From: Mesotaenium endlicherianum
Taxonomy: Eukaryota
Direction: 5' to 3'
Length of the DNA stretch: 64,000 bases
NCBI GenBank assembly: GCA_009602735.1
Contig: WELA01000963.1
Span: forward strand, 278,192 to 342,191
The position numbers and the translations under genes were made by a program. The notes under the pieces were generated by a model, which saw only the letters and a program-made list of their open reading frames with translations, did not search any database and was not told the DNA's origin. This document shows, in pieces, positions 21,144-50,450 of this stretch (the first letter of the stretch is position 1; every line of letters starts with the position of its first letter).

Positions 21144-21144
21144 G

Positions 21145-21156
21145 TGGTATCGGAGC
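21145..21156 (+). promoter_or_regulatory. Primer-binding site, tRNA-iMet type
   Basis: TGGTATCGGAGC 1 nt after the 5' LTR (canonical TGGTATCAGAGC). Confidence 0.9.
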
Positions 21157-21180
21157 TAGGCACTTTGGTAGCACAAGAAG

Positions 21181-25400: not shown

Positions 25401-26048
25401 GCAGCCCTTACAGCAGCGAAGAAAGCTCTACAACACGCGCAAGATGCTCAAGCAAGAGTGGCGAACAGATCCAGAAGAGAAATTACGTACAGAGTGGGTG
25501 ACAACGTGTTACTATCATCCAAGAACATTTCCCTGAACAACAGGCCTGCCGGCAGCAAGTTCTCTCCCAAGTATTTGGGACCCTTCAAGATTATCCAGCA
25601 AGTCAACCCCGTTGCTTTCAAGCTAGAACTTCCCCAGACTATGCACATCGACCCCGTATTCCACGCTTCCCTCTTCAAGCCATATGTGCAACCCGACAAC
25701 AAGTTCCCAGGACGTGTGACAACCCCACCAGCCCCAACAATAGTGGATGATCATTTGGAGTACGAAGTGGAAGACATAGTGGCTATGAGAAATTTCAGGA
25801 GACAGCAGCAATACTTGATCAAGTGGAAAGGATATCCAGATTCGGAGAATAGTTGGGTGGCGGCGCACTACCTTGACAAAGTTCAGAGAAAGTTGAAGCG
25901 CTTCCATGCCGCCAACCCCCATCTTGGACCAGCCCCAAGTCTCTCTACTAGAAGCCCGAAGACTTCAGGGAGGCAGCCTGCCACCATCAAGAAGCAGCAG
26001 AAGACCCCTTGGAGGCAGCCTGCAAGAACAAGAAAGAGGAAAAATTGA
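22440..26048 (+). CDS. pol: Pol polyprotein (protease, RT, RNase H, integrase, chromodomain), in the -1 frame relative to gag
   Basis: [62 protein letters not shown] and chromodomain [21 protein letters not shown]. Confidence 0.97.
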
Positions 26049-26820
26049 CATTAGACACTCTTCTCTTCTCGCAGTTTCTGGACAGAAAACTAAAACTGCT
26101 ACTGGTAATAGGTCTCTGCATAATAAATTCTGAAAATTTACCTGGCTGTAGTCCATGAGTAGCCGGTCATTTAGAGTCCAAGTTTGCTCAATTTGAAGCA
26201 CTGGTGAGAGAGATATNTGAGAGAGATATGATGCTCAAAGTAGAAGGGGGTCCGACTGCTGGCATTGTTAGGGCAGAATATGCCTTCTGACATTGTGCCC
26301 TCCCCTGAACTTGGAATGCTTTGAAACTCAAGACTCTGGTAGAACATCTTACAGCGCCCAGTTTGAGACTTAGTTTGGAACATTTGGAGAAGTATAGAAG
26401 GACTTGTGATTTTCAGAAGTTTCTGCACAGATTTGGAGGAGTGCCTACTCTCTCAGCTCTCAACGACACTCCAGAAATGAGAATGCTCTCAAATTTGGTG
26501 ACCCGGTAGAGTTCTCCGACGCGGTCCGTCTGGCACTCGAATTTTTAGATTTGAAGCAGTTCTGTGGCCGCTATGAATTTCTGAATTTGTGGCAGATTTT
26601 GGGCCAACTTGTACAATTTTCTTTATCATTAAGGAGTAGGCTAGCCAATAAGGTCACACCACCTACGACATTGCCTAGTCTACCTTACATGTGTAGCACC
26701 TGACTTGGCGCCTTTGACTAGTCCTCTTTACATGTGTGGCATCTGACTTGAAACTGTTGACTAGTTTGCTCCACATGTGTAAGACCTGACTTGACGCGCC
26801 GAGACGTCGCTTTTTCTATC

Positions 26821-26830
26821 GGGGGGGTGA
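26821..26830 (+). promoter_or_regulatory. Polypurine tract
   Basis: GGGGGGGTGA immediately before the 3' LTR. Confidence 0.85.
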
Positions 26831-27333
26831 TGTAGTGATTTGAGTTATTATATATTAGTTTGCATATATTTTAATGTTTTCAAATATATTTGGAGTAGTA
26901 TTGTGTGGAGTCAAGTGTGAATAGGTACTCTAGTAACTTGGTTCATGTCCTTTGAACCTTCCAAGGCATTTTCGAAGTTAGAGAAAAGACCTAGAAGAAC
27001 TCCATGTGGCAAAAGTCAAATGTGCCATTTTTTGGTCAAAAGGACATGTGTACATTATTTTAGAAAGAGGTGGCAAAATCTGGGATGTGTTGGGTGCCAA
27101 CACATTAACATACACTTTCCTAGAAATTACTTTTGTAACAAGTATATAAACAAGAGCTAGAACATAGAAAGACATTCCAGAATCACTCTTGTACTTGCCA
27201 AAATCCAGAAATATATTAACTTTCAAGAAGCCATCTCTCTTTCAAGAAGCTACCACTTGTGTTCAAAGATCCTTGTCTTGAATAGATAAAGTATTCTGTT
27301 TTACTAAGTACTTTATCTATCTGTTTCACTACA
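26831..27333 (+). repeat. 3' LTR
   Basis: Direct copy of 20641-21143 followed by the TSD GCGTC. Confidence 0.97.
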
Positions 27334-29100
27334 GCGTCCTAGCACAGTGTGCCGCACTCCCCAATGTGTTCTCTGCCGACGCCTTTGTGATACCTAGTGC
27401 GAACAGGTGAAAAGGCTCCAAAGGCATCTGGAGTGTGCGATTCCATCCGGGCAGTTCCTCCGTCTCTTCTCCCATCCATAGCCCTTGTGACCTTTTTCCA
27501 CTCCATCCAACCTCTTTGCAAATGCTGCGTGAACTGCCTTCAACCTCTTCACATCCGCCTCACACTCCCTCTTTGTTCTCTCCCCAAACTTTTCATGCAG
27601 CAACTCCTGTCTGGCCTCTTCCCACGATCTCTTCTTAGCTGCTGCTTCCTCACGCGCCTCCCCGACCTCCACCCTGTAACGCCTAGACTCTTCCTCAGTA
27701 CGCGGCACAACATCATTCAACATCAAGTTCTATTCTTGGAGCCCGTTCTTGTGTACGGTTCACACGGGGCACGAGAAGTCGAAAGACTGCCCCTTCATCA
27801 TCATACTCTTAGTCCTCTGTGGGAAATCTTGACAGAAGAGCGTCATCACCCTCACCAGACACGCTTGCTTGAGTGGAGCGAAATACATCTCCACGCCCTC
27901 CTGTAGTTGCTTTTGGTCTTCCCTCACGAGGTACTCAAGCACCTCACCATTTCCAGAGTTCTTGCTGCTGAATGCAATAACCCTAATGATGCTGGTATCC
28001 CCGATGACACTGCTATCCAGATTCTGCAAGCGATAGTAGTACCCCGTGACACTCTGACCCTTTTTTTTGAAGATCTTGAAAGCATCCATGAACAGCAATA
28101 TGGCCAGGTTCACTACGGGCAGGTTCTTGGGATTGTGTGCCTCCCTTGTGGCGTCTGGGGTGCGCAGCTGGAAGTTCACAGCTGGTGCCGTTACCCTCTT
28201 GAAAACTCCCTCGTCCTTTTGTTTGAGAGCATTTACACACCAAAAAGTCTCCTTGCCTTCCACTACCCAACCGTGTTCCGACCGCTCCCAGCCTAACTCC
28301 TCCCAGTTCCCCCCTGATGGTGGTGCACCATGAACGACTTTGCAGTTGCGGAGAACGAGGCTAGGGTCCACTTTCATAGGCTCCTCAGTGAGCAAGAGCT
28401 CCCCGTGCCCTTCACCCTTCTGCATCACGTGAGCACTTATGACGGGCTGTCTATTGGGTTGGCTGCTGTCAATCGATAGGATCTTGTGCACCAAGACCAT
28501 CACCTTCCGGCCCGCGGCACCTACGCATGCAGGAAGGCCCTTGTCATTAATGACAAGTGAAAGAATAATTGAGGAGAAGGAATTCCCAGGCACACAGCAA
28601 GCGGTACTCCTAGACTTCCATGGCTAATATGCAATGTGGCAAGCAAGGGTCGCAGTGATATATTGCTACTTGTGGGCTCATAACCAGGAAATCCCCCAGG
28701 GCCACCTTCATTTCCTTCCCTCCTGTGTGCACTCGAGAGCTGTACTCCCGAAAGAACGGATGGCCAATTATATATAGGGAATCTAGAGCCCCGTCATCTC
28801 TCCGTCCACTAACACCCCAGGCTTGAAGTGGATCTCCCTGCTCAATAAATCGTCCCTCACCATCTCCGCCAAACTTTCCTTGACAGGCTCGGACCACAGC
28901 TTCTCCCCGCTTGGCAACAGGACTTCTCGCACACCATGCTTGTGAAATTCGGCTTTCGTCTTGTGTATGTTGTCAATAAAGCACCTTTTTTCGTCCTCTG
29001 CTTTGAAGAACTGGCTATTCAACCTCCACGCCTATGTCAATCGCTTCGTTTTCTTAGTACCTACATTGTGCAGGATCTTGTAGCCACACTTGCACAAGCA
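27334..29100 (-). pseudogene. N-terminal and catalytic part of the CMC/EnSpm-type transposase, with stops and frameshifts
   Basis: LAILLFMDAF (first D), FCQDFPQR..KGQ..SCPV* (second D, then C..C broken by TGA) and LEPFHLFALGITK (cf. D.MH...LG..K). The last frame continues across the TSD into 20624. Confidence 0.85.
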
Positions 29101-29879
29101 TGCCGCGCTTTTGAACTTCCCCCACTCTTACTCTGTGGCCTCTAATAGGTGCCGTATTGTTTCATATTATTGATTGATTGCCTGGAAGTTCCTGGCCGAC
29201 CAATTTCTAGTACGCTGCAAGTTTTTGGCAATGACGGGACCGTTTTAATTTCGTGAAAAAAAGGACTGGAGACAAGGAATTCGTCACGGCACGTGACCAA
29301 CTTTCTGGTCCGTTCCTCTCCTGCGATTTCATTCGACGGTCACAACATTCGACCACGACGGCCGCAACGGTCACAACTCAACTGCACACACAACGCAGGT
29401 GCATTCATTGACACGTATCGTCGTGTTCTGGGAGGAGTGTAACAAATGTGAAGGGCACACAAATTATTGCGTTGTGACGTGTCGCAGACGTCATGACATT
29501 TATGCGAGCAAAATGTGAGTTATCGTACGTTGTCCTCCATGCGGGTGTCGCTCATGTTTGGGAGTCGGGAAATAGCGAGCTCATTTGGAGTAATTTCCAT
29601 TAGCGACTGCCACATTTGGACGATAAAGAAAGGTACTGGGAGGTAGCTCTCTGCATGCTGTACATGCTGCTTAATCCTGCTTCATGCAAGAAGGGTGGTC
29701 GACGAGGCAAAGAATGGCGTCTATTGCCATCTCAGCGGTGGACAACAAGAGCAACGACAACAAGTCCAACACTAATATCAGTAGTAAGAATGCAAAGATT
29801 ATTTCTCTCTCTGTTCTCTTCCAAAAAGTCTCAATTGCCTAGAAATATTGCTCATCATTCAGAGTTGTACCTCCTGCAG

Positions 29880-30249
29880 TCTCGTGATGAGAGTCTGAGC
29901 CTTCAGCAGAGACACGAAGCCTTGGATTGGCATGCCTTATACAAAGGGCTTGAGGAAACGGAGGAATGCTTCAGAAGACAGGCTCTTGAGGAGCAACGAG
30001 CCGAGTCGAGACTGAAACGGGGGAGGCAGGCAGAAGAGAACTTGAGGTCTTGGTTGGCGGAAGGTAACACTATGGTGGTAGAGTTTCAGAAGCACAAGGG
30101 CCCGAGTTTGAGGAAGTGGAGCGAGAAGGTGAAGGAGGGGGCCCGCTTGGCCATGCAAGGTACATGATCTGTGCAGCTTAAGTGCACGTGCGAAATGCCC
30201 TGTGTTGCTCAATTCCTTTGGTCCGCTTGTTAGCTTAACAGTGGCCCAA

Positions 30250-30288
<39 letters not shown>

Positions 30289-31510
30289 CTGCTATTTGTA
30301 TGTTTGCAGTTATTGGAGCAAAAGAGGATGCTGGCATCCTCGTTAACAGAAGCACCGGTGTGCAAGGGACCGACAGGGAACCCCAATCTGTCCCCGGCCA
30401 CAACCACCAAGAAGAAAGCCACAACTCCATGAGAGGTACACAGCCTCCTGACACCTTGAGAGCATGTGCATGCTAGACTGTCAACTGACTCTGCTTGTTG
30501 GCCACACGGTCTTAGAAAGGGCTCAACTTCCATGTTATGAGTGCAGGCATTCCACGTGAAGAGGAGGTTTCCATTTCAGTCCCAATGTGGGGGAACAACA
30601 AGCACGGCTATGAACAGGAGTGGGAAGATTGCAACAACAAGAAGTCTCCACAGAACAGAGACTCCGACCTCAACAAAGAATTTGTAGACTGTGCACATGG
30701 TGAGTAGGTGCGGAATCGGTGGTGTCTCACTTCATTTGTACTCCATCTGCATGCTTATGCACATTGTAGCAATCTCAGGCCCTCCTGCGTTGGCTGATAG
30801 ATCACAAGCAAGGAATGAGCAGGCCCTATCAGCGCAAGCGACACTTTGATGCTGCGACCTGTGACTGCAGAGAAGACAACTCCGGAGGGAGGCTCCTGCG
30901 GTACGTATTTGAGCAATTTAAAGAAGAGGACGCCAAAATCCGAAGCGCCGCCACGTAGGAGGCCTCCAGCTACGAAGTCAGCCCAGACAAACAAGAAAAA
31001 GAAGCAGGCTGCAACTTCAGGCGGGAGTTTCGCTGCTCCAACAACTAAGAAGAACCACCAGCAAAAGGAACGCCGCGTGTACTCTGTGGAAGAAGAGGAC
31101 ATGGCAACACAGCCGAGTGAGGCAGAGACGACAAGCTCAGGTGGGCAAAAGATCGATTGGACTCCCTGTTGCACGCAACTTTGCTGATGCACGCATATCT
31201 CAAGAGTTCAGCATCAATGGTGCACCTCATTGAACATCTGCACGAGGGTAGGTCTACACATGATTATCAGTTGAAGAAACAGGAGCGCTTGTGAGGGATA
31301 ATAGCATGCCAATATTGGGGCCACCCGGAAGATACATTGTCACCCGTTTCAGTTGCACTGAGCAGACTCTGATTACAAACCGAAGCCCCGGGAGCTGCGT
31401 GCTGTGGAGCTGCTTGCTGTGGACTGAACAAGGCGGGAGCAAGAGGAGTGCCAAAGGCCTGTGTACAATAAGAGGTGCTAAAAGAGATGCTCTGGCAACA
31501 TGTGTAGAGA
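29880..31510 (+). pseudogene. Multi-exon cargo gene remnant: coiled-coil region followed by a basic low-complexity region
   Basis: Exon-like blocks with AG/GT borders (e.g. 29880-30159, from 30310) and charged helical translation. Several stops. Confidence 0.4.
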
Positions 31511-31979
31511 GCTAATGCAACAATATGGCGGAAATATTTATTGTAAGAAGATTTGGGGTACCAGAGTATATCGTACAGGACCACAACTTGTACTTTTACT
31601 TACAAAATAAAGAAATAAAACTCTTGTCCACAGGTGCTGTTGTTAGTAACATATACTGATTCCATGATGCACACCGCAAATTTGCTAGGCGCAGAGACTC
31701 CAACTGCTGCAGTGCAGGACACTAACACAAGTACACATGCATACTTTTTGATATTATATTAGTCTACATCATTGGTCACTCAACTTCACACAACCAAGCA
31801 TGTGCACTGGAGGAGGCATGAAAGTGATTCGATTTTCAACTGTGATTTCGACAGCAGACATCCCCAAGAGTAAGGAGGATAAAATGATGCTACTCTGTAG
31901 CAACAAGGCGCCTACACCCCTAACACAAGCTTCTCAAAAGCATGTGTGCAAATATTTGACTCAGACGCTAGTGCTGCAA

Positions 31980-33094
31980 CTAATGTAACCTGCCTGTAAA
32001 ATAATATGAACTAATGTACAAGGAGCTCAAAGAGGGGCCTTGCAACAGCAAGGACCACATATGTACAATTACTAGAACCTTGTAAAGGCCCTCACACTGC
32101 ACAGCTGCCATCGCTCTCTGCTTCCAGGTTGCAGCATCATCATCCTCCGGCTTTGCCCTCCACAATTGCACATCCACAATAGCATTTAGTGTGTTAGATG
32201 GAGGCGCAACAGTAGCAAAACTACCTGCCATTGCATGTTGGGCACAAACAACACAGGAATTGTCCACCTCAAATCCTTCACATCAAGAATTGCCTACCTC
32301 CACTCCCCCCATGTAGCAGACAGAGCACATGTTGAAACTTAAACCGCTTTCTTCCACAGCAACATCCTCACCCTCAGCTTCAGCAATTCTTCTTGCACGC
32401 TTTTGGGTGCCCATGTATCACCCAGACACTTTCTGTGGGACTGAATTGCATCTGATTTCAAGTCTCGCAATTTACCCAAACCGTATGAGGCGTTTTTTGA
32501 CATCTGTAATGACTCCTTCATCCATTGGACAATATCATTTGTGACTCTATCAAACTCTCTCTCCCTATTTGGCCCCATCTCCTCAATTGGATCGTCATCA
32601 ACTGGCTAGAGAGCTGCCACTACATCCACAGCTAGCACTACATCTCCCTGTGATCTCTCAGGTTCTAATAATGGAGCTTTGCCCTTGTCTGATGTTGATG
32701 CCATGACAGACACGACTTTGTCCTCCTCTAGAGCTAGCTAACGAGGCTTGTTTCTCAGACGGAAGGCTTGATCATAAAAGACTGCAGCCTTTCTTCTGAC
32801 CTAAGATAAATGCTGATTGATGGTGATGTTTATATCTAATTTCGCCATCGCATCACTCTGGATTACCTCCAGACGAGTAATGTCATATGCAAGACTACTT
32901 TTCAAGGCTTCAATCCTTTTGATTTCCACTTTGGTTTCCTCTATAAATTCCTGCAGTTCATCACATAAATTGCTGTGCCGCTGTTTCTTAGTTGGACTCA
33001 CCGGTTCCTCATCAGCACTACTTGTACCTCGTAACCCTTCACCCCCTTTGCTTTTGGACATTGGCATGTATTGGCTGTTGTCGCTCACGCACAA
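31980..33094 (-). pseudogene. Cargo gene remnant: coiled coil plus a possible PHD-like Cys cluster
   Basis: LCDELQEFIEETKVEIKRIEALK coiled coil and CSVCYMGG..CEG..SCVVCAQH, interrupted by stops and frameshifts. Confidence 0.4.
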
Positions 33095-33295
33095 GACAAT
33101 GCAATGTATGAATGATAAAAGCTAGCACAGCTCGAAGAGAAAGAGGGCCCGACTTTGTGACCAGCCTGAAATCTTGATTCTTGATATTAAATTCATCACG
33201 AGCACCACAAGAAACGGGAAACTCACCTGACATGCACACAATAGCCTATCTACGCCCTGGCCGAGGGTCCCATCTGTGGATATATTTGTCTTCAA

Positions 33296-33610
33296 TGTAG
33301 GAATATACACCTGAGCCACTTACATGCAGCCACGGCTCTGCATGTGCATTTAAGAACAGGGCTCGGTAGAGGTATCGAAGGACAAGGTTGGATGTCTCCG
33401 ACTCGCAGGCGCTCGGGTTTGACGATTGAACGTAATTAGACGTGAGTAATTATGTCCAAGAACCAAGAGTCGTTCAACCACGTCCAACCTCTGTGCACAA
33501 ACCAACCAAGCGCGAGCGAAATATGAACTTTGTGTTGAATGTACTTCAGATGACCAAAATATGTGGTCACGCACACGCTTTACTTTGTTGAAGCAAATGA
33601 CCTTCAAAGG
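33296..33610 (-). repeat. Right arm of the internal inverted repeat (partner 16315-16657)
   Basis: Reverse-complement similarity described for the left arm. Confidence 0.85.
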
Positions 33611-34320
33611 TTTTCACACAATTATATTTCTATATAGTATAGCACTTGAAAATGAGATAACCTTCTGTAATAAATTGGTTACGAAGCATGGCCTTCCCGG
33701 AGTTTCGATCCTTCGTTTGCTCGTTCGGAAAATGTGCGTGAGGTTGACAAAAAATATAATGTTCGTTTCAGGAGCAATGCAATAGTATGACAAAAATATC
33801 ACGTAAATAAAGTGTAGAAGGGTGGAATGACTTTGGGGTTGCGACCCAATCTATTATCACGCTCAAAAGGGTCGCGTGTGTGGGCACATCAGCTTTTCCA
33901 CTACACCATACTGGGTCATACCGCCAGTGTCGACATTCAAACTACATTACTAATGACGTCCTATCATCCACGGAGTACCACTGAAGTTGAAGCTAGCCCA
34001 ACGTCGATGCCGACGTAGCCGCCCAAAGGTGCCGAACTCAGTAGTGAAGGCAATGGACCTTCGCAACCCACTTTCCCTCCATGAGGCAAATTTGCAGATT
34101 TGACGCCAATTTTTTAAGGATGACTTCCCTCCAATCTCACTTCATTTTGTACCCATATAGTGCAACATGATGGGCCCTTTTAGTGTCAGATTTGTTTCTC
34201 TCCCCATTTTAAAAGCGCACCACCGCTTTCAGTCACCAAGCTACTACAGACACGCCTACATTGTGTCACAATATAGCACTAGCACCAGACGGGAAAATCT
34301 CTGCTATTGTGGATGAGCAC

Positions 34321-35078
34321 ATGTCAGAGGACTCTACTTTCGCAGGATGTATCTGTTCCATATGTTTAGGTGAAAACGCACTTGTGCTTAATTCTTGTTG
34401 TGCGAGATATTCAGTGCGATGAGCACAAGGTCAGCGGTTCAGATTTCAACACTCTGCACAATTTTAAAAGAGGTCCTGGACTGCATCCACATTTATGTTT
34501 GGCAGATATTATGAACACACCCGGGGAGGTACAAGATTGCGGCCACAGGTTCTGCAAAAGGTGTATTGAAACAGCACTTGAAAAAGGGTAAGTCTTGGTC
34601 TTAATAGTTACCTTCCCTCAATAACTGGTGCTGCAATTTATGAATGGCACTCCAGTGTGTAACTGACTATTATGTGCAGTCCACTGTCATTTGCAGGATT
34701 CTCCACACACCTGTGAGCCACATAATGTTCTAAGAGCGGCGTGTTGCCAATTTTGCTCGTGCACCGATTTCCTTGCAGTAGGGGCAAGTGTCCCCTTTGT
34801 AGGAAGCTTGCCACTCGACGGGGATGTCGACGGTTGGATGCTTATTTGTGTGCATTGATGCACAAACTTCATTCCATTACCGACGGTTGTACACTTGTCA
34901 ACAGTTTAAAACCGTTACAAACAAGTGACTGCGTGGGTGGCGACTATGCCGACGAAGACACAGAGTGAGTTACTTTAATCTTGTCCAAATTGATGGGACG
35001 CCTGCAGATTGGAACAGCGCTGCTGTACTCCACTGCTGCTATGCTTCTTTCACACACAAACTGCTGGCCAAGGAGAGA

Positions 35079-35155
<77 letters not shown>

Positions 35156-35157
35156 NN

Positions 35158-35209
<52 letters not shown>

Positions 35210-36173
35210 TGCAAACTGTCAGTCATTTGGAGTTCTATTCACAGATTGAGCAAGATACTGCACTACAGCTCATTACACCATTTTCTTACATGTGACTGTC
35301 TCCAATGGCAGGCCGCCTCTCGACGAGATTGTCTACTATCCGATGAGCAGTAGCTTCATCTGCGTTCCTGTTGTCTTCGTTGGAAAAGCGTGGGCAAAGA
35401 AAGAGGCGGGCATACATCATGCTGACGTCTTCTTCAATGGCTAGTGCATAGAGGTACAGAAAGACATATTTGCAGCTTTCTTCTGTGATGACGACGAACC
35501 GTTTTGGGTCTCAAAAAAGAATGTGAAAGATTATCACATTAAGGAGGATGAGGCTAAGTACAGCAGGGGTAGCACCGCAGCTCTTTCCAAAAAGTGTAGA
35601 ACCTTCGTGATCAACAACCCCAGGCGGTCGTTGGAAGCAAACATTGTAAAGACCAGGAAGGCAAAATTGCCTCCCTTTTTGACTCTGTTCTGGAGGTTGT
35701 ATAGGGTTAGTCCCATTCCGTGCGGTTGTCAGTCTGATACTTCATTCCAGCCGGTTGGATCCTGTACTGCTGCTAATTGTCATAGTTCAAGGTACTTATG
35801 CAGAGGAAGGTCCTTGGAAAATAGCAACGGCTGTAACCATAGTCCCTTGTAGTGTATCGCCCACTCGTGTACAGGTGTCACTGTGTTGCATATGTATTTA
35901 GGATCATGACTCTTCCCCTGGGGACTGAGCAAATTCAGATAAGTTGATGAAAGTCCCGCAGGAGAAGCCAGTTGTTTTTTAGTGGCCTCGTGGAAGTTGT
36001 ATCACAAGAGTCCAGCACATATGAAATTACAGCTGCTTGTTCAATTGAGTTGGAGCACACCAACAAGCATTGAGTATGAGGTCGAGGTCAAGTACTTTCC
36101 GACAGGGTACTCTACCTCTAAGTTTTGTGCAGTGAATTCAGCGCGTGTTCAAGTCTGGCGGCATTCCAAATAA
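34321..36173 (+). pseudogene. Spliced C3HC4 RING-finger gene resembling Polycomb RING1, followed by degenerate PWWP-like segments. Exons approx. 34321-34369, 34506-34587, 34779-34964, 35312-35660, ~35900-36173
   Basis: Spliced RING reads CSICLDIMNTPGEVQDCGHRFCKRCIETALEKGRGKCPLCRKLATRRGCRRLDAYLCALMHKL. Downstream AFFCDDDEPFWVSKKNVKDY and PGD*..F*WP..EVKYFP contain stops. Confidence 0.75.
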
Positions 36174-36333
36174 TTGTCACTCAAATGATCACTAGTAGAA
36201 GCAAATCACCCACTGCGAAAAGTCACGACATACTCATTGCTACTTTAACTTTCTCCCACACATTGTGCCGTCATCAAAGGAGTCCTATCAAGCACCTGTC
36301 CTTATAGATCCTGGGATACTTGTTGCCTCTCTG

Positions 36334-37952
36334 CTAGTGAAGGCCGTCGATCTCCACGAGCGTGCTCACATGCTTTCGGTTACACTTGTGCTGATGCTCG
36401 CCATGTGCACTTTTCCCAGAAAGCCACGTGTTGAAGGCAGCTGCCAGCGTGTCACAAGTAAGATGACCCGAGTCCTTCTTTACTCTAATCTCCTCCTCCA
36501 CAAAGTGGCCGAAAGGCAGTGCGCACCTCAGGGCACCACAGCTGCCTCTCACGAGCTTTAGCCTTCCAGTAGACAGCAAGTTCAACGAGGCCCACTGTTT
36601 GTTCGTGAGGCCACCCTTGACTCGTGGCGGAGCGCAGGGCTCACCGCGTGTGGACAGCGCATCGATGGCCGCCTGGCAGAGGGACGCGCAACACGTCGCC
36701 AGCAACGCGTGTCTTAAGGGCTGTGCCAGGCTTCCAATGCTTGCCCACTCCTTGTCACACCGCGGCCAATTGAACCACCACACGAGTTTGCTCTTAGCGC
36801 ACCTTTGTTCCTCGATTGACCTGTGCACGAGAGAACCGGGTATGGGAGCGACGGGAGGTGCATCTACCAGCGCCGACACGTGGATCGCCTGATGTATCCT
36901 AAAATCACCACTTTGCATCTGCCAGGCAGCCTTCGGCCAGGTGGCCACCTCGTGCAACGGCGGGTCCTTGTTGAAATCGTACTTGTCTTCGTAGGCATGA
37001 GATATTCTACTCTCGATCCATGCCGAAAGGCCTATTGGAATGGCATTACCTAAGTGGTAAAGCTGACGCTTTGCGTGGGCCACACAATTTATTTAGCCAA
37101 CTGGGAATCCTTGCTGGGTCTCTACGTCCTCCACGCCTAGCACCCGGAGGCAAGAGGTGCGGCCCACCTCCTCTGCCACGACGAGGAGGTTGGAGTTCAC
37201 GCACGTGACTGTTGGACAGAGGCCGTATCCCTTGTAGGGCGATGCCTCATTCAATCCCAATACCCACACTCCCTTGTACTCTGTCTTCTCCAGCAGGCTG
37301 TGATGGGCACAGATGCATATTTTTGTATGATTGCCAAACGCGAGAGGAGTCAATAGCAGGTCACGCGGGTCTCCCAGCGCATGGCAAGAATGACGACCCG
37401 CTCCCTAGCTTGGGGCTGTCCAAAGGACAGACATTGCACGATTCTGTAAGCCCAATTGTAACCCAAGGCGTGCAGATTGTGAGCAACATGAGATATATAT
37501 GCAGTCCCACTTTGTGTTTTTCTCGTGAGCAGCCCCGAGACATTCTCTAAAATGACAATAGGCACTCTCTGCAGTTCTAAGAGGCGCCACAGGTGTACAA
37601 TGAGACTAGTTTGCTTCATCGACGCAACCTCCCCGCCTGTGTTACCTCTTGTCGACACATCCTGGCAAGGAAACCCCGCCAGGACAAGGTCGATGCCTGG
37701 GGGAAGACTGCCCATGCTCACTACATCCGAATGGACTTGAACACCAGGAAAGTGCTCCCTAAGGAGGGCCTGATAGTGGGGATTACTTTCAACAAAGACA
37801 CGTATTTCGTGCCCTTGGACGTGGAATGGCAACTCAAAGCCACCTATACCAGCAAACAGACTGCACACTTTCAGTGGTACTCTTTTTTGGCGTCTCTCTT
37901 CAGGTGAAACCATTTGCCCATCAGAGTGGGGCAGTACACGCATGGCAGTCAA
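36334..37952 (-). pseudogene. DNA (cytosine-5)-methyltransferase, Dcm/bacterial-viral-like, with one frameshift (~37352) and one in-frame stop (37093-37095)
   Basis: Motif I SLFAGIGG, IV AGFPCQD, VI LENV, VIII PQARERV, IX EDVETQQGFP and X LGNAI..WI. Confidence 0.92.
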
Positions 37953-37956
37953 GAAT

Positions 37957-38402
37957 TTACCAAGAGTCCAAGCTTAGCTTAGTGCAGTGGAGTATTGTGC
38001 CAATATTTGGTGGGTAGTCATAAACACCACTGGCAATAAAATGGGGATGTAGGAAGCTGGGCAATTTACAGCGCCTAATAACCTCTCTACTGGCATCACT
38101 GTGCAGCCTAGGGTTCTTGAAGACAAAAGCATCTATGTAGTTGTGCAAATAAAATGTGCACTCAAATGTAGCACGCGCTGTAATTGGGGGTACGTGATAT
38201 TGTAACACACTATCTTCGTCCACCCAATAACAATCGCCTTCATTTCGCTCGCCATGGCGGTGGAATATGGCTCCAAAGATATGCAGCTCCACCTCCAAGC
38301 ATAAGCCTTCATAGAAGATAGTGTCAGCCTGCCCGCCATGCTTTTGGGTCGCCCAGTCCTCTCCGAAAAAGCGAGCGGGAATGCGAATGTAGGATGCTGC
38401 CA
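37957..38402 (-). CDS. ORF just upstream of the methyltransferase, possibly its N-terminal reader (Tudor/PWWP-like) domain
   Basis: MAASYIRIPARFFGEDWA..FYEG..CYWVDEDSVLQY is an aromatic-rich beta-type segment on the same strand, ending 5 nt before the DNMT ORF. Confidence 0.4.
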
Positions 38403-39477
38403 TCTCGAATGGGGGCCTGAAGGGAGTGCAAGACAAACATAACATGAGTAGCTTCAGGGCAGGTGGCATACGTCCAGGTTGAAGATTCGCTACTTAATCA
38501 GACAAATACGTGCGCACAAGGGTGGCACAAGAAACCAACAAATTTGCCTTGTTTCATCATGATATCATGCCACTTATGGCCTACATTCACCTCCAAAGTA
38601 CAGGTGAATTGCAATGTACCTCTCGGGATGCATAATCATCCTCTTCTGTGGGCGGGGCGCCGCATAATAGACCGTCATCCTCCTCTTCTGTAGGCGGGAC
38701 TTTCTAAGGTCCATAGCAAATCAGAGGAATTAGGATGAAGAATGTTGCAGATAGATAGTGTAAGATGTAGTAATACACTATTCACATGGGAGGGAAACTC
38801 CCTTCGAGAATTCGGGTGCAATAGCGCCCAAAATTCTTTGATACCTGAAGAAAACGACATGAAATCAGAATGTCAAGATGAGTATATTGGATTAGCGACC
38901 TTTAAACAAATAAGTATGTCTCGATAGATAACTATAAGCAAAGCTGGAAATTTCGTGAATAGATTCAAAAAAATCAAAAATCCACATTTTGAATATCCGG
39001 AAAATTCGCGCCAGTTTCCCCCCCATGACTATTCACGACCATTTGTGTAACCACTTCCTCGTGGAGCCGCACTCTGTCATCGAAACCGTCGGTTGTCCCC
39101 CGTCGACGGGTTAGAACCGATGAAGTATGCGCCAACGACATTGACGCTGACCTGGAGGTCGTTGTTCGACGGCAGGCGTCGAGGTAATACTTCAAGACCA
39201 CGTCAAGAACACTCACTGTGTTTCCCCGACGTTGTACATGTCGGTACATCCAGATGATAAAGTGTACAGCGGAGCACGCGTGGTTGCAACACGTCAAGAC
39301 TAACCGCTGTGTTTCCAAATGACGAAGTGTACGGTGGTACCTGGGCGCGTTAGCGGATTTATTCGCAACTGATACAATCAATAAATCAGGTAAGGTGCTG
39401 TACTCCCATCGCAACTCAGAGCACTCAAACAGAAATGGTTGCGTAATGAGGCATCTTTTGCTGATCCATCTCGTACA

Positions 39478-39849
39478 ATGGCAGAGTCAAACTCGGTTGA
39501 CAGGATTGAGGTGTTTCTGAAAATGGAGGGTGTAAGAGCTCATATAAACAATATGCTGGAAGACGTCAATGAGGAAATTTGGGATCTTGAGCTGATTATT
39601 ATGGTTAACAGTAGCTTGCTACAGGCAAGCAATAAATTGCTCAAAGTATATTTCAAGGAACACGTTAGGCGGCAACTCGAAGATGCACAAATGAGCGAGT
39701 TGTTCAAAGAGTGGCAGAAGGATGACAAGAAGGATAAGGAGCGAATGACGCGTCTTTTAGACAGGAGGAGGCGGCATGAAGACAAAATTTACGGCCTTAT
39801 AATATTATACATAATATTAGGCAGACCAGGCAATGCAAGTGAGAAGTAA
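39478..39849 (+). CDS. Hypothetical coiled-coil cargo protein (123 aa)
   Basis: Uninterrupted ORF from ATG with charged helical composition. Confidence 0.45.
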   Translation: MAESNSVDRIEVFLKMEGVRAHINNMLEDVNEEIWDLELIIMVNSSLLQASNKLLKVYFKEHVRRQLEDAQMSELFKEWQKDDKKDKERMTRLLDRRRRHEDKIYGLIILYIILGRPGNASEK

Positions 39850-41794
39850 GGTGGAGCACATAAACAGAGCATAGTGGGCAATGAGTTCAATGGAGATTCT
39901 ACACATAACAAAAGTAACAGCTTCGCCTTAGTATCAGGCAGGATAGATGTATGTTAGTGAGACGAGTGAGGTGGCCTAATACGTATGGGGGATTATTCTA
40001 CAAATGGATGATAGCAAACCAGTAAACATAGGTTCATATATGCGCATTAGCTGTGTATTCAGGAAGTCGTGGGCTTGCATTTTATCCACATTATTTTGGA
40101 AGCTTTCATTGTGAAATAACGCCTTTCAAACGGAGTGGCAACATTTTAAACAAGCTGTGTGTGCATGTAGAAGAAGCAGTACATAAGGTGTAGGAAAACT
40201 TCATTCATATCAATCCGCATACAGCTTGCGCAAATGCTCACCATTGCCAGATGTATAAGACCTGTTCAATCTTACTGGGTACTGCACCTGCACCTTTCAC
40301 CACTATCACCATCTAAGACTCTGGCTATTGTGCTATGTACACCTCATGCCTCATCTTCTATTTCACTATCTCATCCTGTACACATGGCTCCGGCCTATCT
40401 TGCCCCTACTCAGTAGGCCACCTTCTATAATACACCGCTGATGATCAAGCCTCATCGAGTTGAGCAACAGCGACGTGGACAAGTGTGCAGCGCACACACC
40501 AATCTCTCAAGTTGAATTCTTGTAATAATTTGGTGAATATGGGTCCTAGTCCGATCCTGAGCACCTTCCCAGCAACCAACATGTCAGTCGATGACTTCAC
40601 ACTCAGTATGCTTGTATCCATAAACTTATGCCTGCTCTAAGCATCAACAACAGATGCACATGAATAAAACATGGTTGGCACTTGCGTGCGAATGCCGCGA
40701 CTCACCTTCCATATACTTCTTTATATAGTCGTCAATCTGGCCATACCACTCCGGTTGCTCCTGAAAAGTATTATTGTGAGAGGTTGCCGCGGATAATGAA
40801 ACATAACACAATAAAACGTTGAGTGATTCCATGGGTACCATACGCGGATTATTTTGTCCACCCGTACAGAGGAGGGATGTGAGGTTACGCCATAGGGTGC
40901 TAACTGTTGCGAGAAAGTCACAAACATTTTGCGCAGCTCCTAGTGGAAAATCTAGCCAACATTTCGATTGTTTGCGCAATTGTAAAAAAGTCACATTCCT
41001 GCAAATTTTTTTCAAAAGAGTTAACAGCCCATGGGTTACGCAAACTAGCAATATAATGACACGGGAAGTCACGTTGAGGTGTGCGCAAGTGCTCACCTGT
41101 GGGGGCCCTCTCATCACGCGCAACTGACTGCTGCGACCTCCTAACTACCAGCATCGAACACCTTTCTCCTCTCCTTTGCACCGCCTCAGGATTTTCAACG
41201 GCTGGACCTTCCACCGCGCTTGCAGTGGCGCACATATTCTTTGGAGATCGTCCCCTAAACTTCTTGGGTCCAGAGTTGGGATCCCCCTCTTGTGGCCGTG
41301 ACATTGGGGGCCTTCCCTTCCTCTTGTTTTCGCTCTCTGCACTGCACCAGTGGGGCCTTGTCCCCCGCCATTGTTTACTGCACACATGTTCAAAATGACA
41401 CATACGCTCACTATCACCTACAACCCCTGTTCATATCTGGCTCCATATGCAGTGGCAATGCACGAGGTTGCAAGGCAAGATAACGTGATCACGTGCATGG
41501 AAATTAGACAGGGATAAACTGCAGCCACTCACCGTGTGCCACGGAATGTGCAACCCCTCCCCCCTGTACATTGCATATGTCTGCATACATGACACAAGCA
41601 CACAAGCACATCAAGCACGTCTCCATCATTGATATACAAGATCCAATTCAGTCAAGACTCTTCAGTACTAAACGTAGAAAAAAAAGAGCGAGTACAAAAG
41701 ATAGGCGGTAGATCTCACTTTTGTGAATGTGATCCTTAAGGCAATTAAACTAATTGTGCCACTTTCCAGCTACGGCAAAGAATAATAAACTGTA

Positions 41795-42220
41795 TCAGCA
41801 TGCACACTCTGTGAATCCAATTTGCAAGGGTCTCGTACCCTGCGTGGCGACTCGGGTCCTGGCAAGCAACTCCTGGCACCTGCTCGCCGTGTAGCTTCCC
41901 TCCACGTGGTTACAGTGAAATCCAAGATAAAGACTCAATGCATCTTGCTTGATGACTTTCAGCTGTCGACGGTAGAACCTTCCCAGTTCAGCCGTAAGAC
42001 AGCCACGGCGCTCTAACATCCCTTCTTTTTCCTTGTCCAGCTCGCCTCCCACCTCTTCAAGTTTTGCTCTTTCAAGTCGAAGCTCCACTTCCAGCCGCAT
42101 GCTAACAATGTCATGCTCCTTCTGTGCGCGCTCTCTTTTGTCCAACCCAAGACTTTCGTCACAACTCTTCGTTAGATAATAATCTGCTAACCATTCTAGG
42201 TCTGAAACAGTGGAACCCAT
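41795..42220 (-). CDS. Hypothetical coiled-coil cargo protein (141 aa)
   Basis: ORF with heptad-like RLEVELRLERAKLEEVGGELDKEKE. Confidence 0.45.
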   Translation of the reverse strand: MGSTVSDLEWLADYYLTKSCDESLGLDKRERAQKEHDIVSMRLEVELRLERAKLEEVGGELDKEKEGMLERRGCLTAELGRFYRRQLKVIKQDALSLYLGFHCNHVEGSYTASRCQELLARTRVATQGTRPLQIGFTECAC

Positions 42221-44775
42221 CTTGCCTCAGTTGGTGTCAACAACCTCCGCCGTTTGAAATGCTCACAGTGGGAGAATTATAGAAAAAGACACGCAATTGC
42301 GCATCAATACCACACTTCCCACACTCTATTCCGTAAGCACAAATGAGCAATTGCTCAATCTCAAAAAGGCTTTGTGAATCACAAATCATCCTCATTGGAC
42401 ACATCGTGTAAAAGAATGAAGAATAATAAGCTTGCATGGGGAAACACAGATGTTCCTCTATATCGTGCTCAAGATTTTCTTACTCCGGAACTCCTAGTCA
42501 TCAAACATCATTTTGCACGAAACAGCATGTGCATGGCTTAGCAAGTGTTCGTTCGATAATCTCCACACATGTTAAGATACATGCAGCTTATTGGATACAT
42601 GCAGTAAGAAGAAGGGGCGGCAAGAGAAGAAATAAAATGTTTAGGAGCCTATGTTTCTCCTATCACGTGAAGGTCTCCGCCAAGTGCCATGCTAGAACTT
42701 TGGCTATTGTTGTCATACCATGTATCTTTGCAAAGGCTGTGCCTCACGTGAGCTTAGATCACCTTCATAGTCGGCATTGGTCGGCACTTGCTCTCTGCAT
42801 GTACGGCGTACGGGCTCCCCCCTAAACGTCGAAAGCGTACGACGTTCGACGACAACAAAGGACATTCAACACTTCCAATGACTCCGTTATTAACCGCCAC
42901 CTTAGTAACAACACGCCACCCATGACGGATGTCATAGTGGAGGCTCAAATAGTGTCGCAAATTAGTTCAACGACGCAAACTACCATTAAACTAAAGAGAT
43001 AATGCTGGATGTCGGAGTGGATCACGAAATTGTGTCATAATCTCCGAGTAATGATGCCAACCATTTCGAATTCGCGATTGCGGATCGAGAGTGGAAGACA
43101 TATAGCAACGTGTCAGCCGCAGACGGCCGGAAAACGCAGCAATTGATTTTGGAGTTCCGTTCGGCTGTGGATCGGCGAGGAGCGCCGGAGAATTTTGCTT
43201 TCCATGGACAACAAAATCCATTTGAGGCCTCAAATAGAACAGAATCCATTGGAACGGGCCGATTCGGCTCGAATGGAAATCCATTTGGTAAAGTGGTCAA
43301 AATGGAAACGGTCTAGCCCATGTCCAATGTCAGGGTGTTTGACAACAATATAAAGGTAACATGTCTGTGGAAATGAATTATCAAAAATACATTTTCCAAA
43401 TGTTGTTAGAGTATTTGTTTTTCCCTCTTTGTATCCTTATTCTTTCGAATTTTGTTTCAGATGATTTGCAATTGAAATAATACTACTTTCATTCACAACC
43501 GTGCTACTCTAGGGCTTAGCCCCTTATACCACTTAGCACTCCCTCATGCTCCCCTCATACATTGTAAGTACATTCTTCTTAATTCTTAGTTGTTTAGCGA
43601 GGGGTGAACAACGATCTTGAGAAAGGACTTGTAAGGCGCCCGGGGATAAATAAGGCAGGTGCGAAAAGAAGTCCCCAACCAAACTTTACTCACGCTTTCA
43701 AGTCATTTACTATCACTTACCAGCTTGATTGGGATATTGACAAAATTTGTACAAACAAGGTGTGTTCTTGAGTGAACAGATTGGTGCATCAAATATTATA
43801 GGTACTTGAAAGTAGTCACAATAGTGACTAAGTTGACATGAGCCGTACGTAGATTAGTAACAACACGTCAGAAGTCGCGTCAACTCAGCGAAATTTACAT
43901 GTAAATGCGAATTCAACCCTTTTAAGACCAACAAATATAACTTTGTATCAAAAGCGTTAGATGGCACACAAAGCAGCGGCGTCAAAACATACTTGACTTG
44001 TATAGTTTGCCGTTGGAATAGCTCTTCCAATAGGACGTGGCCCACCGTGACAGAGCGGGCAAAGTGGCCCACTAACACGCACTTGTCAACAGTTGCCTCA
44101 CTATACTATTGAAGCAATGCTTTTCTGTAAGCAACAGTGACATTGATACGCATGGATGCCGATTGCAAGTCAGTGCATAAAGGTAGCAAGGTGTAAGAAG
44201 GTATGAATATAGGCAGTTGTGGAGGCCTGATGGTAGTTTGTGTAGAATGTGGACAAATATAGTATTTAGAACTCTAGCGCTCTAGTATCTAGACTATGCT
44301 TAGCCATGCTAGGCCGTATTCAATGAAGTTGACATGTATAAGTGCCGTACAGTATTGTACACCACTGTAATAGGCGACCAGCTGCGACTCTGGTCTGACG
44401 GTATCGTGTGAAACCACGTGGTACATGGGAATCTTCCAGCCTACAATTTGAGGATGCCTTTTTTCCAGTTTGTAACACAGTGCCAGTTGACCATGCTTCG
44501 ACAATGAGCAGTTGGTCATGGCGGAACAGAAACTTCGTTCCTGAGCTGCACTTGGAGACAGTATAGTCTGAAGTTTTCCTCTTCGTGTCGTTGGTCATGA
44601 TAACTTGCGTCCGAAGAATGAGAGATATTCGCTGATGGGCATTTTTGTACATTTGAGTATTGCTAGCTCAGGTTTCGCTTGCTGGGCCTAGCTCCGAAAT
44701 TTGAGATGCCAACCAGGTTGAAGTACCGTGCCAGTTAAAGTTAGTAGTCAATACCTTTTTGGTTCTTCTCTGAAT

Positions 44776-46216
44776 ATGGCCATTAGGATTGCAGAACCTG
44801 CGAGTACAGTACTGTGGCGCCTCCTTCCTGAATTTGATTTGCCGCATAAAAATTACCAAGTGCGCTCAACATGTCCACGTGCACAACTGAAATGCTCGGC
44901 CGTTCTGAGGAAGAAATACTTGGTGGATAATTACTTACCTATGAGCATGAATTTTTCGTCCTTGAAGGCAGCATATAATTGCAAAAGAGGTATGCTTTTC
45001 TTATCCCTTCTTTAGAGATGGACAGCTCGTTATATCAAATAAAATATATAATGAGGTGCCCACAGCAATAGGTTGCCTGGTAGATTCGTAGAGGCTTTAG
45101 TTAAATGTTGTTGAGCAAACATCATCATGTTCTGTGACTTACCGTGAGGCACGTTAATCATGTGGCTCTTCTGGAGTTTTAGCTCTTATCACCTTTATCA
45201 ACGTAGCTACCTCGCAATGGTTGTGAAATTTGATCTGAGTGCATGTGTCGGCCCATTGGGACTAGTAAACTAGGAAAAGGTTAAGCTTAACATGAATTGA
45301 TAGTCTGCTCCTTGATTTGAAATCTGCTTGTTGTACCGCATCTACAGGTCTTGATGCCAGACACAACAAGCACGTTTGCTGTCGTGCATCGAACAATGAC
45401 ACTGCACTAGACGGGCAGCCATCACCAGAAGATGATGGGCCGGATTCCTCACTCCTACATAACAAGGAGTATCTCCCGCTGCCTCCTGAAACAGACTGGC
45501 GAGCCTTTCGCGCTCACTTGGTAGCATCAGAACAGGAGCAAGGTGATGCAGAGGGGACAGTTAACGTGGAATCTGCTAACCAAGGAACTACCAGGGTTCC
45601 ACCACCCAAAGGGCAGAAGGCAAAGAGATGGGCTCATGCTATACATGAACCGGAGAGAGGATGCCTGCTTGTCGCATCCCCTCGACTTGATGGCTATGCG
45701 TTTTTTGAGAGATCCGTCATCCTCCTTCTTAATACAGGAGGCCTGGATGGGCCCTATGGGCTTGTGTTGAACAAACCATATGCTCGCAAAGTGTTTGGCA
45801 TCAAGGGTCTCAACCCCATCATTTCAGAAACTTTCGGCCCTTGTCAGGTCAACGTAGGGGGGCCAATAGATGACAGGCGATTCCTGCTGCTGCACGGGGT
45901 TAGGGATGTCAGCGGCTTTGACGAAGTGATGCCCGGTGCCTATTTTGGCGGAGCTCGAGGCATGGATGCCGCGGTGTCTCTGGTGAAGAGGGGCCTTGCT
46001 GATCCGGAGGACTTCAGCTTGTACTTTGGGTACGCAGGGTGGGACTCTGCCCAGCTAGCCAGAGAAATTGCGCTAGGCTGGTGGTATGTGGCAGCTTGTA
46101 GCACCGAGATAGTGCTCAAGGAACCGAGGGAAAACCTGTGGGAGGACATCTTGGAACTCATGGGGGGGCAGTACAGGCAACTGAAGAGAAAGTTGAGAGG
46201 AGAAGCTTCAGAGTAG
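44776..46216 (+). CDS. DUF179 / YqgE-AlgH (UPF0301) family protein, plant type. Exons approx. 44776-44989 and 45348-46216
   Basis: DWRAFRAHLV, WAHAIHEPERGCLLVA, FERSVILLL, GLVLNKP, GGP, GYAGWDSAQLAREI..WW and LWEDILELMGGQY. Phase-1 GT-AG intron; the start codon is tentative. Confidence 0.9.
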
Positions 46217-48370
46217 GTCATGATTGTGAGCTGTCACTTTTGGTGATTATGATTGTCATGGTGGGAGTATGAGCTTATGGCTTCTCCAGTACAAATTAGT
46301 TTTATGTGCCAGGTAGTATATTGTAAATAAGAACAAGGTTGTAACATACATGGTAGGACAAAGCGGCAGGCTGGCAGCCCTAAGCACGTCGAAGGCCTTC
46401 TTGGTCCGATGACTTTTAGTCCAGAGGCTCTAGTTGTGGTCTGGAGGTAGAAAGTTAGGCATGTAGGTTCAAGCATGTCCTAGATAGGGAAACGTTGCAT
46501 CTACAAAACAAAGGGAGTAAGGAGTTTCGTTGTCTCAAGGTCAGCATTGATTATTGCTTTCCTAGAGAATGAACAACATGCATAGTTGGTGGGCATACAT
46601 AACGCTTAGTAAAATTTTTGAAAGCACTCAGTGAGTCAAGGGTATCATAGCGGCCAGCTTAGAAGAAGTCTGCTTCTATAACTGTAACTTTTTGATATAA
46701 CTTTTGAGCAGATTATGCGGCAGAATACTTACAGGACAAAGAGCACAAAGCCACTAATCTAGTTTGTTAATGAAGTCGCCGTCAATTGCAAGTAAGGCCA
46801 ACAAGGGTAGCAGTATCTCTTTGAGAGCAGTAGTCACCAGTTTGTGGTAACCTGTTTGTGCCTTGAAAATCTTGAAGTGACCTCTTGAAGTTCAACACTC
46901 GAGTCTATCGTCCTAATTGTCCTGGAAGGGACATCGAATTTAGCTGGGTTCAAAAACTTGCTTCGTTCTTGCTATAATGGAATGATTGAAGTGGTGTACA
47001 TAGTCGGGCACCTTTTTGCTTGATAACTTAGATTCGAATTGTTTGATAATTAAAGTGCTTGAAGAATTCATTGGAGAAGCTTTGGAAGGGATGATAGGAG
47101 TAGTAATTTGCTACGTTGCGCATGTTGTGCTTGATTTAACTTCCTAGTCCGACTCTGCTTAGTTACTTCCGCTTCTTATCTGAGCTAGGTACGACGCATG
47201 TGACGAGCAACTCGAGCGGATATTTGCTACCTTGCTCCTATTCTAATGGTGCCTAATGACAAAATCCAATCCTATCGATTAGTCCATACGGTATTTCTCG
47301 TGCTATGTTGCTCTCACAAGGGTTGGACGACTACCGCGCGAACTAATCGATGCCGACGTTGGCAACCTTGGTGCATCCCTCACCAGAATGGAAAGCGAAC
47401 AAATTCCTGATGTTTTTTGTGCTAGGCATGACAATTATGTCAATTCCCGGTGGTGACTTCGGATCACACCGTATCATTTTGGTTAGCTTTGCGGGCTAAT
47501 GTGCGTCCGTTGTGTGATTGGGGGGGTGCGGAGGGTAAGTGTGGCTTTCATATTCTTTTTCTACTAGACTCTAAAATAATAGATTTGACAATTTGTGTTC
47601 AAATTGCCTGATTTTGAAAGCAAGAAGGTGATTTTAGAAAAGAAAAGTAGGAGTAGTAGTATGCTACAAATTGCGCGTCGTCTGTTCTTGTCTAGTCCTT
47701 TCCTACATGCTGCTACGCTTATCTGTACTTGACTAATTAAGAACAATACAAAGAGGTCAAAACAACTATAATCCAGCTCCTAAACAACACTATGGATTGG
47801 CAACTGCACTCTTGCTATGTTGAGGTTGTCCGTCGAATCGCCGCCGTTGGTTACTACCAATTGACAAGACACATTGTAACACTAACAACAACAACCACAC
47901 TATTGTGCATGGCGAAGACTATTGCTGGCACCAACTTCGTTGCCTGCCTCGTGCCTCTCCCCGTGGAGTGGAGGGTTAGAGGGGTGGGTGGGTGGGTATG
48001 TGTAGCAGCTACCTTCCNAGTGGAGGGTTAGAGGGGTGGGTGGGTGGGTATGTGTAGCAACTACCTTCCTGCTGCAATGAGGCTTCTTTGCAACAAGAAT
48101 CCTTATGAGGGTTTTGTTTGTCGATGGGACACAACACGTGTGAAATCGATCAAATTTTGAACACTTGAAATGTCGCAAACCTTCAATTTGACAATTTGTG
48201 TTCAAATTGCCTGATTTCGGAAGAAAGAAGGTGATATTAGAAAGATTAGTAGGAGTATTAGTATGCAATATTAATAGCATACAAGGTACTTCTAGGCTAG
48301 TGTAGTGGTTAGCATAGAAGTTGGGTCACATCTAGGTAGCGGCCCCCACGGGTCGTACTACATGGTAATG

Positions 48371-49369: not shown

Positions 49370-49416
49370 GGCTTGTAAGGCCGGATTTTCAAAAAATCGA
49401 TATTTTGCTCAACACC

Positions 49417-50364: not shown

Positions 50365-50450
50365 CCAAAAGCCACCTTCATGGAAATTAGCTGGCCTGCT
50401 AATGATGCTATTGTTCTAATGCGCACGATACTGGTCCTGTGGGCCATAGC

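Follow-up and report, generated by a model that had tools for sequence, protein, structure and literature searches.

A probable ChloroDNMT-related cytosine-5 methyltransferase gene in a decayed EnSpm/CMC-type DNA transposon of Mesotaenium endlicherianum

Introduction

Retrotransposons carrying a DNMT gene have been described as SymbioLINE-Dnmt, SymbioDIRS-Dnmt3 and KnitGypsy-Dnmt3, with self-methylation having been proposed for them and a de novo CG activity demonstrated for SymbioDIRS-Dnmt3, according to the sections of that study devoted to these elements (de Mendoza et al., 2018, PMC5890265). A first-pass annotation of the locus considered here likewise remarked that C5 methyltransferases have been captured by retrotransposons in some algae. 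With regard to DNA transposons, passages of the relevant articles report EnSpm-superfamily and other giant elements with TET/JBP, SET or N6/N4 methyltransferase cargo. TET/JBP genes are described in fungal EnSpm, ESTA and Plavaka transposons (Kojima, 2025, PMC12730594), a PAG1-3 cassette in the giant Plavaka/EnSpm elements of red algae (bioRxiv 10.1101/2025.02.11.637652), and the element Sola1-1_Ec32 in Ectocarpus (PMC12477816). A C5 DNA methylase is encoded by the DNA transposon Mariner-1_OLpv, as described in the text on that element (Bao and Jurka, 2013, PMC3627910).

Among green algae, the passages on the ChloroDNMT family record one to three genes for each chlorophyte or charophyte species counted and none in the two land plants listed, the proteins often bearing a PWWP domain (Sarre et al., 2025, PMC12344493). 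This family is probably the same as the 'Chlorophyta DNMT6-like' clade of another study (bioRxiv 10.1101/2023.01.30.526367), and no functional test of it was found in the literature passages that deal with the family.

The window analysed here, a stretch of 64,000 nucleotides from M. endlicherianum, contains a C5 methyltransferase pseudogene within what appears to be a transposon. We regard it as probable that the locus represents one decayed member of a 28-kb EnSpm/CMC transposon family present in many copies, in which a C5 methyltransferase derived from or sister to ChloroDNMT constitutes an accessory gene, self-methylating in intact copies.

Structure of the methyltransferase gene

The pseudogene occupies positions 36334-37943 of the minus strand and comprises motifs I-X and WPKAAW, with two breaks. 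The six diagnostic C5 motifs noticed at first pass are all present in canonical order, namely FAGIGG (37856), GFPCQ (37676), ILENV (37553), QARERV (37412), QGFP (37113) and LGNA (37053). The span initially given, 36334..37952, is correct at its lower end, where the final stop codon lies (36334-36336), whereas the first ATG is at 37943, three codons downstream of 37952. In an intact C5 enzyme, SAM is bound via motif I, and the target cytosine is flipped out and methylated at C5 via the cysteine of PCQ. The open reading frame lies in three pieces which, when read through, give 536 residues with an X at each break, arranged as a catalytic part of about 345 aa ending in WPKAAW and a tail of 193 aa. 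The one frameshift and one stop previously reported were both located: the former, at 37373-37375, is a run of C one base shorter than in other copies, and the latter is an in-frame TAA at 37093-37095. Since the read-through is colinear with bacterial and algal relatives over motifs I-X, no intron is needed there, in agreement with the apparently intronless form first described. Motif IX is atypical: it reads ETQQGF, in contrast to the ERLQGF or comparable sequences of relatives.

When the three pieces were scanned against Pfam, the comparison with PF00145 that had been proposed at first pass gave a clear match in the N-terminal piece and in that piece only (113.9 bits against a cut-off of 22, E 1.3e-32). 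No other Pfam match was obtained for the methyltransferase, from which BAH, chromo and RFD domains and permuted motifs are absent. The initial impression that the enzyme does not look like MET1, CMT or DRM is consistent with the presence of PF00145 only and with the canonical motif order, these families themselves being outside the trees described below. The 193-aa tail matched neither Pfam nor a profile built from 11 C-terminal regions of algal proteins, and no relatives of the C-terminal piece were found among 1439 candidates of 192-613 aa.

Affinity of the enzyme

The best 120 of 1010 matches to the N-terminal piece were proteins of 373-469 aa with 41-48% identity, of which none was named as eukaryotic or exceeded 469 aa and the few named were bacterial. 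These relatives, bacterial where named, form a clade characterized by a target region of the PTLKGGSTIGIP type together with a WPxAAW motif. A profile of this clade, used against proteins of 801-2285 aa, retrieved green-algal DNMT proteins from Klebsormidium, Trebouxia, Chlorella, Coccomyxa and others, many of them with PWWP; this algal reference set was taken as ChloroDNMT by the description given in passages of PMC12344493. Two bacterial neighbourhoods held a Vsr gene (in one of them) and hypothetical proteins, so that they offer no target sequence to borrow. Relatives of the methyltransferase were found in 5 of 173 candidates from metagenome contigs, all 31-42% identical, and in none of five candidates from viral contigs.

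The phylogeny suggested at first pass was carried out as three trees with bacterial and green-algal DNMTs, including one named streptophyte member and without DNMT1, 3, 5, 6 or MET1/CMT/DRM. The window enzyme grouped with ChloroDNMT in an LG+G4 tree of 28 rows (99/97) and in a mixture-model tree of 26 rows (100/100), and on motifs I-VIII it was sister to ChloroDNMT (92/91), outside the ChloroDNMT clade itself (100/96). A quick tree of 53 rows gave the same grouping at 97. Its branch is long, with 1.9-2.7 changes per column, and its position is sister to ChloroDNMT or at the unresolved base of it. Against this grouping, a bacterial placement was not rejected by the AU test (p 0.318).

An enzyme acquired separately from the bacterial Dcm-like WPxAAW clade, directly or via a virus, within the same element and with the same role, would explain the ChloroDNMT likeness by shared ancestry and long-branch attraction. 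In addition to the AU result, the position outside the ChloroDNMT clade on motifs I-VIII and the bacterial names among the best 120 of the 1010 matches are in favour of such an origin, as is the motif IX-X region, which scores 26.5 bits on the bacterial profile vs 12.4 on the ChloroDNMT profile. Pairwise, the best matches are likewise bacterial, with 36-37% over the domain vs 34% for Klebsormidium. The absence of a PWWP fusion points in the same direction: none was found in the methyltransferase, and among 1622 window peptides compared with the algal C-terminal profile the best E value was 0.55. Nonetheless, the 83-aa target-recognition region scores 10.9 bits on the ChloroDNMT profile and does not match the nearest bacterial-clade profile, and it displays the pattern common to ChloroDNMT, with PT-T--N, a gap of five residues where bacteria have TIGIP, and a Cys-bearing insert. 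As every tree built also grouped the enzyme with ChloroDNMT, a separate bacterial origin seems rather improbable to us, and kinship to ChloroDNMT is, judging by these comparisons, likely. The earlier description of the enzyme as Dcm-like thus holds for its best matches, which are bacterial and Dcm-like, and fails in so far as a plain Dcm is meant, the three trees having placed it with ChloroDNMT.

The carrier element

According to the account of these superfamilies in parts of PMC12730594, EnSpm elements have CAC..GTG ends and a 3-bp duplication, while Plavaka elements end in TGT..ACA or CATCA..TGATG. The element surrounding the methyltransferase extends over 14865-43337, i.e., 28.5 kb, or about 21.8 kb when a nested 6.7-kb Gypsy element is subtracted. 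On the plus strand, its left end (14862-14872) consists of a TTT duplication at 14862-14864 followed by an 8-bp terminal inverted repeat, CACCCTGA, at 14865-14872, and its right end (43330-43340) of TCAGGGTG at 43330-43337 followed by TTT. The CAC..GTG ends of EnSpm are therefore present, at 14865 and 43337, as is a 3-bp duplication, TTT on both sides, this being a low-complexity triplet for which an empty site was not observed; ends of the Plavaka type are not, the termini being CACCCTGA. Owing to the shortness of its repeat (8 bp), the element escaped an inverted-end scan at scores of 10-13 or more.

The right end was found independently by read depth, with single-copy contigs starting at 43309-43310 in two public DNA runs, X1 and X2. 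The left end was placed from sequence, since the read depth covered 27300-45300 and not the left half (14865-27300), and position 14865 is a putative terminus matching the right end. The 11-mer of TTT and CACCCTGA has a single exact match in the window, base composition predicting 0.007 occurrences in 9-36 kb, and GC climbs from 0.34 to 0.46 near 15 kb, around this end. A subterminal AATGGAAA occurs at 14896 and 14952 on the left and at 43272 and 43301 on the right. All four plus-strand copies of AATGGAAA in the interval 14-44 kb are located less than 100 nt from one of the element ends, and two more are found on the minus strand inside the element.

A transposase on the minus strand has been split in two by the insertion of the Gypsy element. 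Its N-terminal part, which contains stops, lies at 27334-29160 (the upstream limit being approximate), with a putative catalytic D in LFMDAF (28095) and another in CQDFPQR (27834), and with a C(2)C motif interrupted by a stop at 27777. The C-terminal part, at 19610-20640, has an H(3)H motif, HSLLH, near 20219 and a putative catalytic E in GPMVHLWGQSFESEH (20171), with a further 143-aa frame after it. The catalytic roles were assigned by motif likeness to the CMC description in the relevant part of PMC12730594, and the order D, D, C(2)C (broken), H(3)H, E is that of the CMC clade, with no direct Pfam match at E<=5. The C-terminal part gave no notable Pfam or PDB match. Among 1.84 billion protein representatives, two matches to the transposase were obtained, one of them credible (P0244, E 5.9e-4; pairwise E 2e-12), and P0244 itself reaches 25.5 bits on Pfam Plavaka PF18759, below the cut-off of 26.3. 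The other candidate, P0243, was discarded as an ankyrin protein. None of 60 candidates from metagenome contigs was a transposase relative. The motif order suggests a putative, very divergent CMC-type transposase, and the combined features support the classification of the carrier as an EnSpm/CMC-type cut-and-paste DNA transposon, present here as a decayed copy.

The nested element (20641-27333, plus strand) is a Gypsy LTR retrotransposon of the chromovirus type, with LTRs 97.8% alike and a GCGTC duplication. It has a chromodomain, is apparently intact and, with LTRs 2.2% apart, is younger than its host transposon. Inverted, diverged copies of one sequence (70-78% alike in three blocks) flank the transposase at 16316-19059 and 31710-33601 and are possibly duplicated promoter or gene regions. 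In the left arm, a 343-aa frame without a Pfam match (16953-17981, plus strand) is likely another cargo gene. Outside the element, an intronless DUF179/AlgH-like host gene (45296-46213, plus strand, E 5.9e-28) lies 2 kb from the right end, and a DIRS-like retrotransposon occupies 48046-54806 of the minus strand; its terminal repeats are 93% alike, and it has frames for a tyrosine recombinase, a reverse transcriptase and an RNase H.

Copy number and variation between copies

Seven of 24 public runs listed contain part of the stretch. Depth was determined over 27300-45300 from X1 and X2, which derive from one sample of the same organism, possibly the source of the assembly. All 26 bins from 27.9 to 43.5 kb showed 6-25x the single-copy depth, a summed contig depth that does not equal copy number, with 13-23x in the transposase bins and 16-24x in those of the methyltransferase. 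At the right end, depth falls sharply from about 950 and 1600 to 49 and 70 (X1 and X2, respectively) and is flat from 43.5 kb. The gene is accordingly multi-copy at raised depth, unlike the conserved single-copy host DNMT named at first pass as the contrary case. Its proposed location in a DNA transposon agrees with its position between CAC...GTG ends with a 3-bp duplication and with a raised depth like that of the transposase. Contamination was ruled out by the finding, in the same runs, of a single-copy right flank (0 differences in 1991 nt) together with the multi-copy gene; the spliced eukaryotic genes of the left flank also speak against it.

The stretch between the two ends might not be a single mobile unit, or the methyltransferase might be part of a distinct repeat lying within the CMC element, a reading to which we give very little credence. 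The inverted repeat of just 8 bp would fit with it, as would the mosaic interior: the interval 38785-42684 differs between copies, with a separate repeat starting at 38785 (many loose ends) and joins of 38509-42684 or 40722-42578, and depth is lower over 39.3-42.3 kb. Among the run contigs, none spanned both transposase and methyltransferase in another copy. Nonetheless, a joint from 38509 to 42684 in both X1 and X2, its short side being 21 letters, ties, in another copy, the upstream flank of the methyltransferase to the subterminal region on the right, no listed loose ends flank the gene, and transposase and methyltransferase are similar in depth. The matching ends with TTT, so rarely expected by chance, and the subterminal repeats at both ends further argue for a single unit.

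Other copies of the gene were seen in X2 and in a further run, X5, of which the kind is not recorded. The cover of X5 is patchy and RNA-like, with a contig that covers the methyltransferase together with the frame upstream of it, and nothing over the transposase. At the stop site, TGG is read in eight of eight X2 contigs and in the X5 contig, and the stop is thus peculiar to the window copy, the other copies seen having Trp there. At the frameshift site, an extra base is present in two X2 contigs (159 of 731 depth) and in X5; near it, one X2 contig is short of two bases and some contigs end. The X5 contig, of 2600 nt (36034-38513), is 93% alike and has its own TGG-to-TAG stop just past motif X. 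A transcript from a different, truncated copy is one possible source of this contig. The RNA run X8, of which about 6% was read, gave no depth over the gene, and X11 and X14 yielded no reads there at 13% and 24% of the run, respectively, results that carry no weight with regard to expression.

Difference counts rest on 40 of 84 differences, with 28 private to the window copy. Eighteen of these 28 are C-to-T or G-to-A changes, and 15 of the 18 fall in CG or CHG contexts, vs 40% expected (p 2e-4); this bias constitutes the footprint of plant-type methylation on the window copy and, taken with the chromovirus and the affinity of the enzyme, points to a streptophyte-like green plant. The CG and CHG depletion measured by dinucleotide ratios is no stronger in the element than in its flanks, so that no footprint of self-methylation is seen in this measure. 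Synonymous changes make up 12 of the 28 private differences overall (p 0.10). When the gene is divided, 10 of 15 differences are synonymous in the catalytic half, vs 30% expected (p 0.004), the split having been chosen post hoc, while the target-recognition and C-terminal half has no excess (2 of 13).

These data bear on whether the gene is passive cargo, i.e., a host ChloroDNMT copy captured in the manner of Pack-CACTA elements, amplified without benefit and decaying in all copies. Such an outcome would be in line with the finding of no intact copy among the X2 and X5 contigs over the gene, with the truncation of the X5 copy as well, with the lack of a synonymous excess in the C-terminal half, and with the altered motif IX and missing PWWP fusion. 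We nonetheless consider it unlikely. Core motifs I, IV, VI, VIII and X have persisted along a long branch, synonymous changes are in excess in the catalytic half, and the majority letters of other copies are open at the stop and read ENVPG as in Klebsormidium. A spliced host gene captured recently, moreover, would be expected to retain introns or to be fragmentary.

Neighbouring genes and proposed role

A degenerate, apparently spliced C3HC4 RING gene (34370-34965, plus strand; zf-C3HC4_2, E 5.1e-7, 29.8 bits against a cut-off of 27) lies inside the element and is convergent with the methyltransferase. The second half of its RING (CPLC) occurs at 34780, past a GT...AG interval. Downstream of the RING exons, a possible PWWP-like exon at 35445-35849 (plus strand) is a hint only (PWWP E 0.17, 12.8 bits vs a cut-off of 25.6). 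We take the RING at 34370-35849 to be reminiscent of the RING1-type PRC1 ligases of plants. Just upstream of the methyltransferase and in another frame, a 178-aa frame (37960-38493, minus strand), contained in the same 2600-nt X5 contig, has no Pfam match and gave a pLDDT of 31.9 in a single-sequence fold.

Under the reading of an accessory gene in a multi-copy EnSpm/CMC transposon, the element would have taken up the methyltransferase gene long ago, with the catalytic half kept under selection. That the enzyme may serve the element is suggested by the core motifs kept on a long branch, by the synonymous excess of the catalytic half and by the RING and PWWP-like neighbours. By analogy, methylation of the element's own DNA would be the likeliest role of an intact enzyme, and self-methylation has been proposed for comparable cargo in passages of earlier studies (PMC5890265, PMC12477816). 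At first pass, too, intact copies were suggested to methylate the element or else to alter host methylation. Possibly in concert with the RING gene next to it, the enzyme may set a chromatin state on the element copies and in this manner tune transposase access or expression. The window copy would have died later, through the Gypsy insertion into its transposase and through host CG/CHG methylation followed by deamination. As the enzyme is short, stand-alone and intronless, it should be easy to assay, and with many public RNA runs available its target sequence and role are directly testable.

A bolder proposal, possible though doubtful at present, is that of a green-plant lineage of giant CMC elements in which an active C5 methyltransferase and a RING partner form a self-marking cassette. 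The mobile enzyme would then be a sister of the host ChloroDNMT, so that the element would either keep the family in existence where hosts have lost their own gene or be similar to the carrier by which it first passed from bacteria into green plants.

Comparison with known systems

No C5 methyltransferase in a nuclear EnSpm/CMC element and no transposon-borne ChloroDNMT came to light in the full-text literature searched, from which most subscription journals, Repbase Reports and the bioRxiv supplements were absent. Passages of PMC12633428, PMC9246332, PMC11244446, 10.1101/2025.06.16.659975, PMC5751038 and PMC12460157 likewise yielded no relevant precedent. The suggestion that capture by a CMC transposon is a possibly undescribed association stands in part: no nuclear CMC case was encountered in that literature, whereas Mariner-1_OLpv, as described (PMC3627910), is an earlier instance of a DNA transposon bearing a C5 methylase. 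As described, Mariner-1_OLpv resides in a giant-virus genome and is paired with an endonuclease in a restriction-modification-like arrangement, whereas no endonuclease was found in the window.

The closest parallels are shared in different respects. Like SymbioLINE, SymbioDIRS and KnitGypsy with their Dnmt genes, as these have been described, the locus presents an intronless C5 methyltransferase in a multi-copy nuclear transposable element. In the retrotransposons, however, the reported enzyme is a Dnmt3 or an orphan DNMT within ORF1 or Pol, whereas here the carrier is of the cut-and-paste type and the gene is stand-alone and of another family. With the PAG1-3 elements and Sola1-1_Ec32, which are reported at 17-22 kb, it shares a giant DNA transposon with accessory DNA or chromatin modifiers proposed to act on the element. 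Their described methyltransferases are nonetheless of the N6-adenine/N4-cytosine type (PF01555 in PAG2) and not C5, and the ends in the window are those of EnSpm and not of Plavaka. The EnSpm elements with TET/JBP, in the account available, resemble the locus in their CMC-clade carrier, CAC..GTG ends, 3-bp duplication and cytosine-modification enzyme, with the difference that they carry an oxidiser of 5mC and the window element a writer. Since cytosine methylation is the main weapon of plants against transposons, a nuclear cut-and-paste element with its own writer would represent the mirror image of elements that carry TET or counteract silencing.

With regard to ChloroDNMT itself, the likeness lies in the tree grouping, the target-recognition pattern and the WPxAAW motif, whereas the window enzyme differs in being intronless, multi-copy, transposon-borne and long-branched, with no detectable PWWP fusion. 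If the favoured reading holds, the capture of C5 methyltransferases, known from retrotransposons, would occur in the CMC clade as well, and ChloroDNMT would join Dnmt3 among the captured families.
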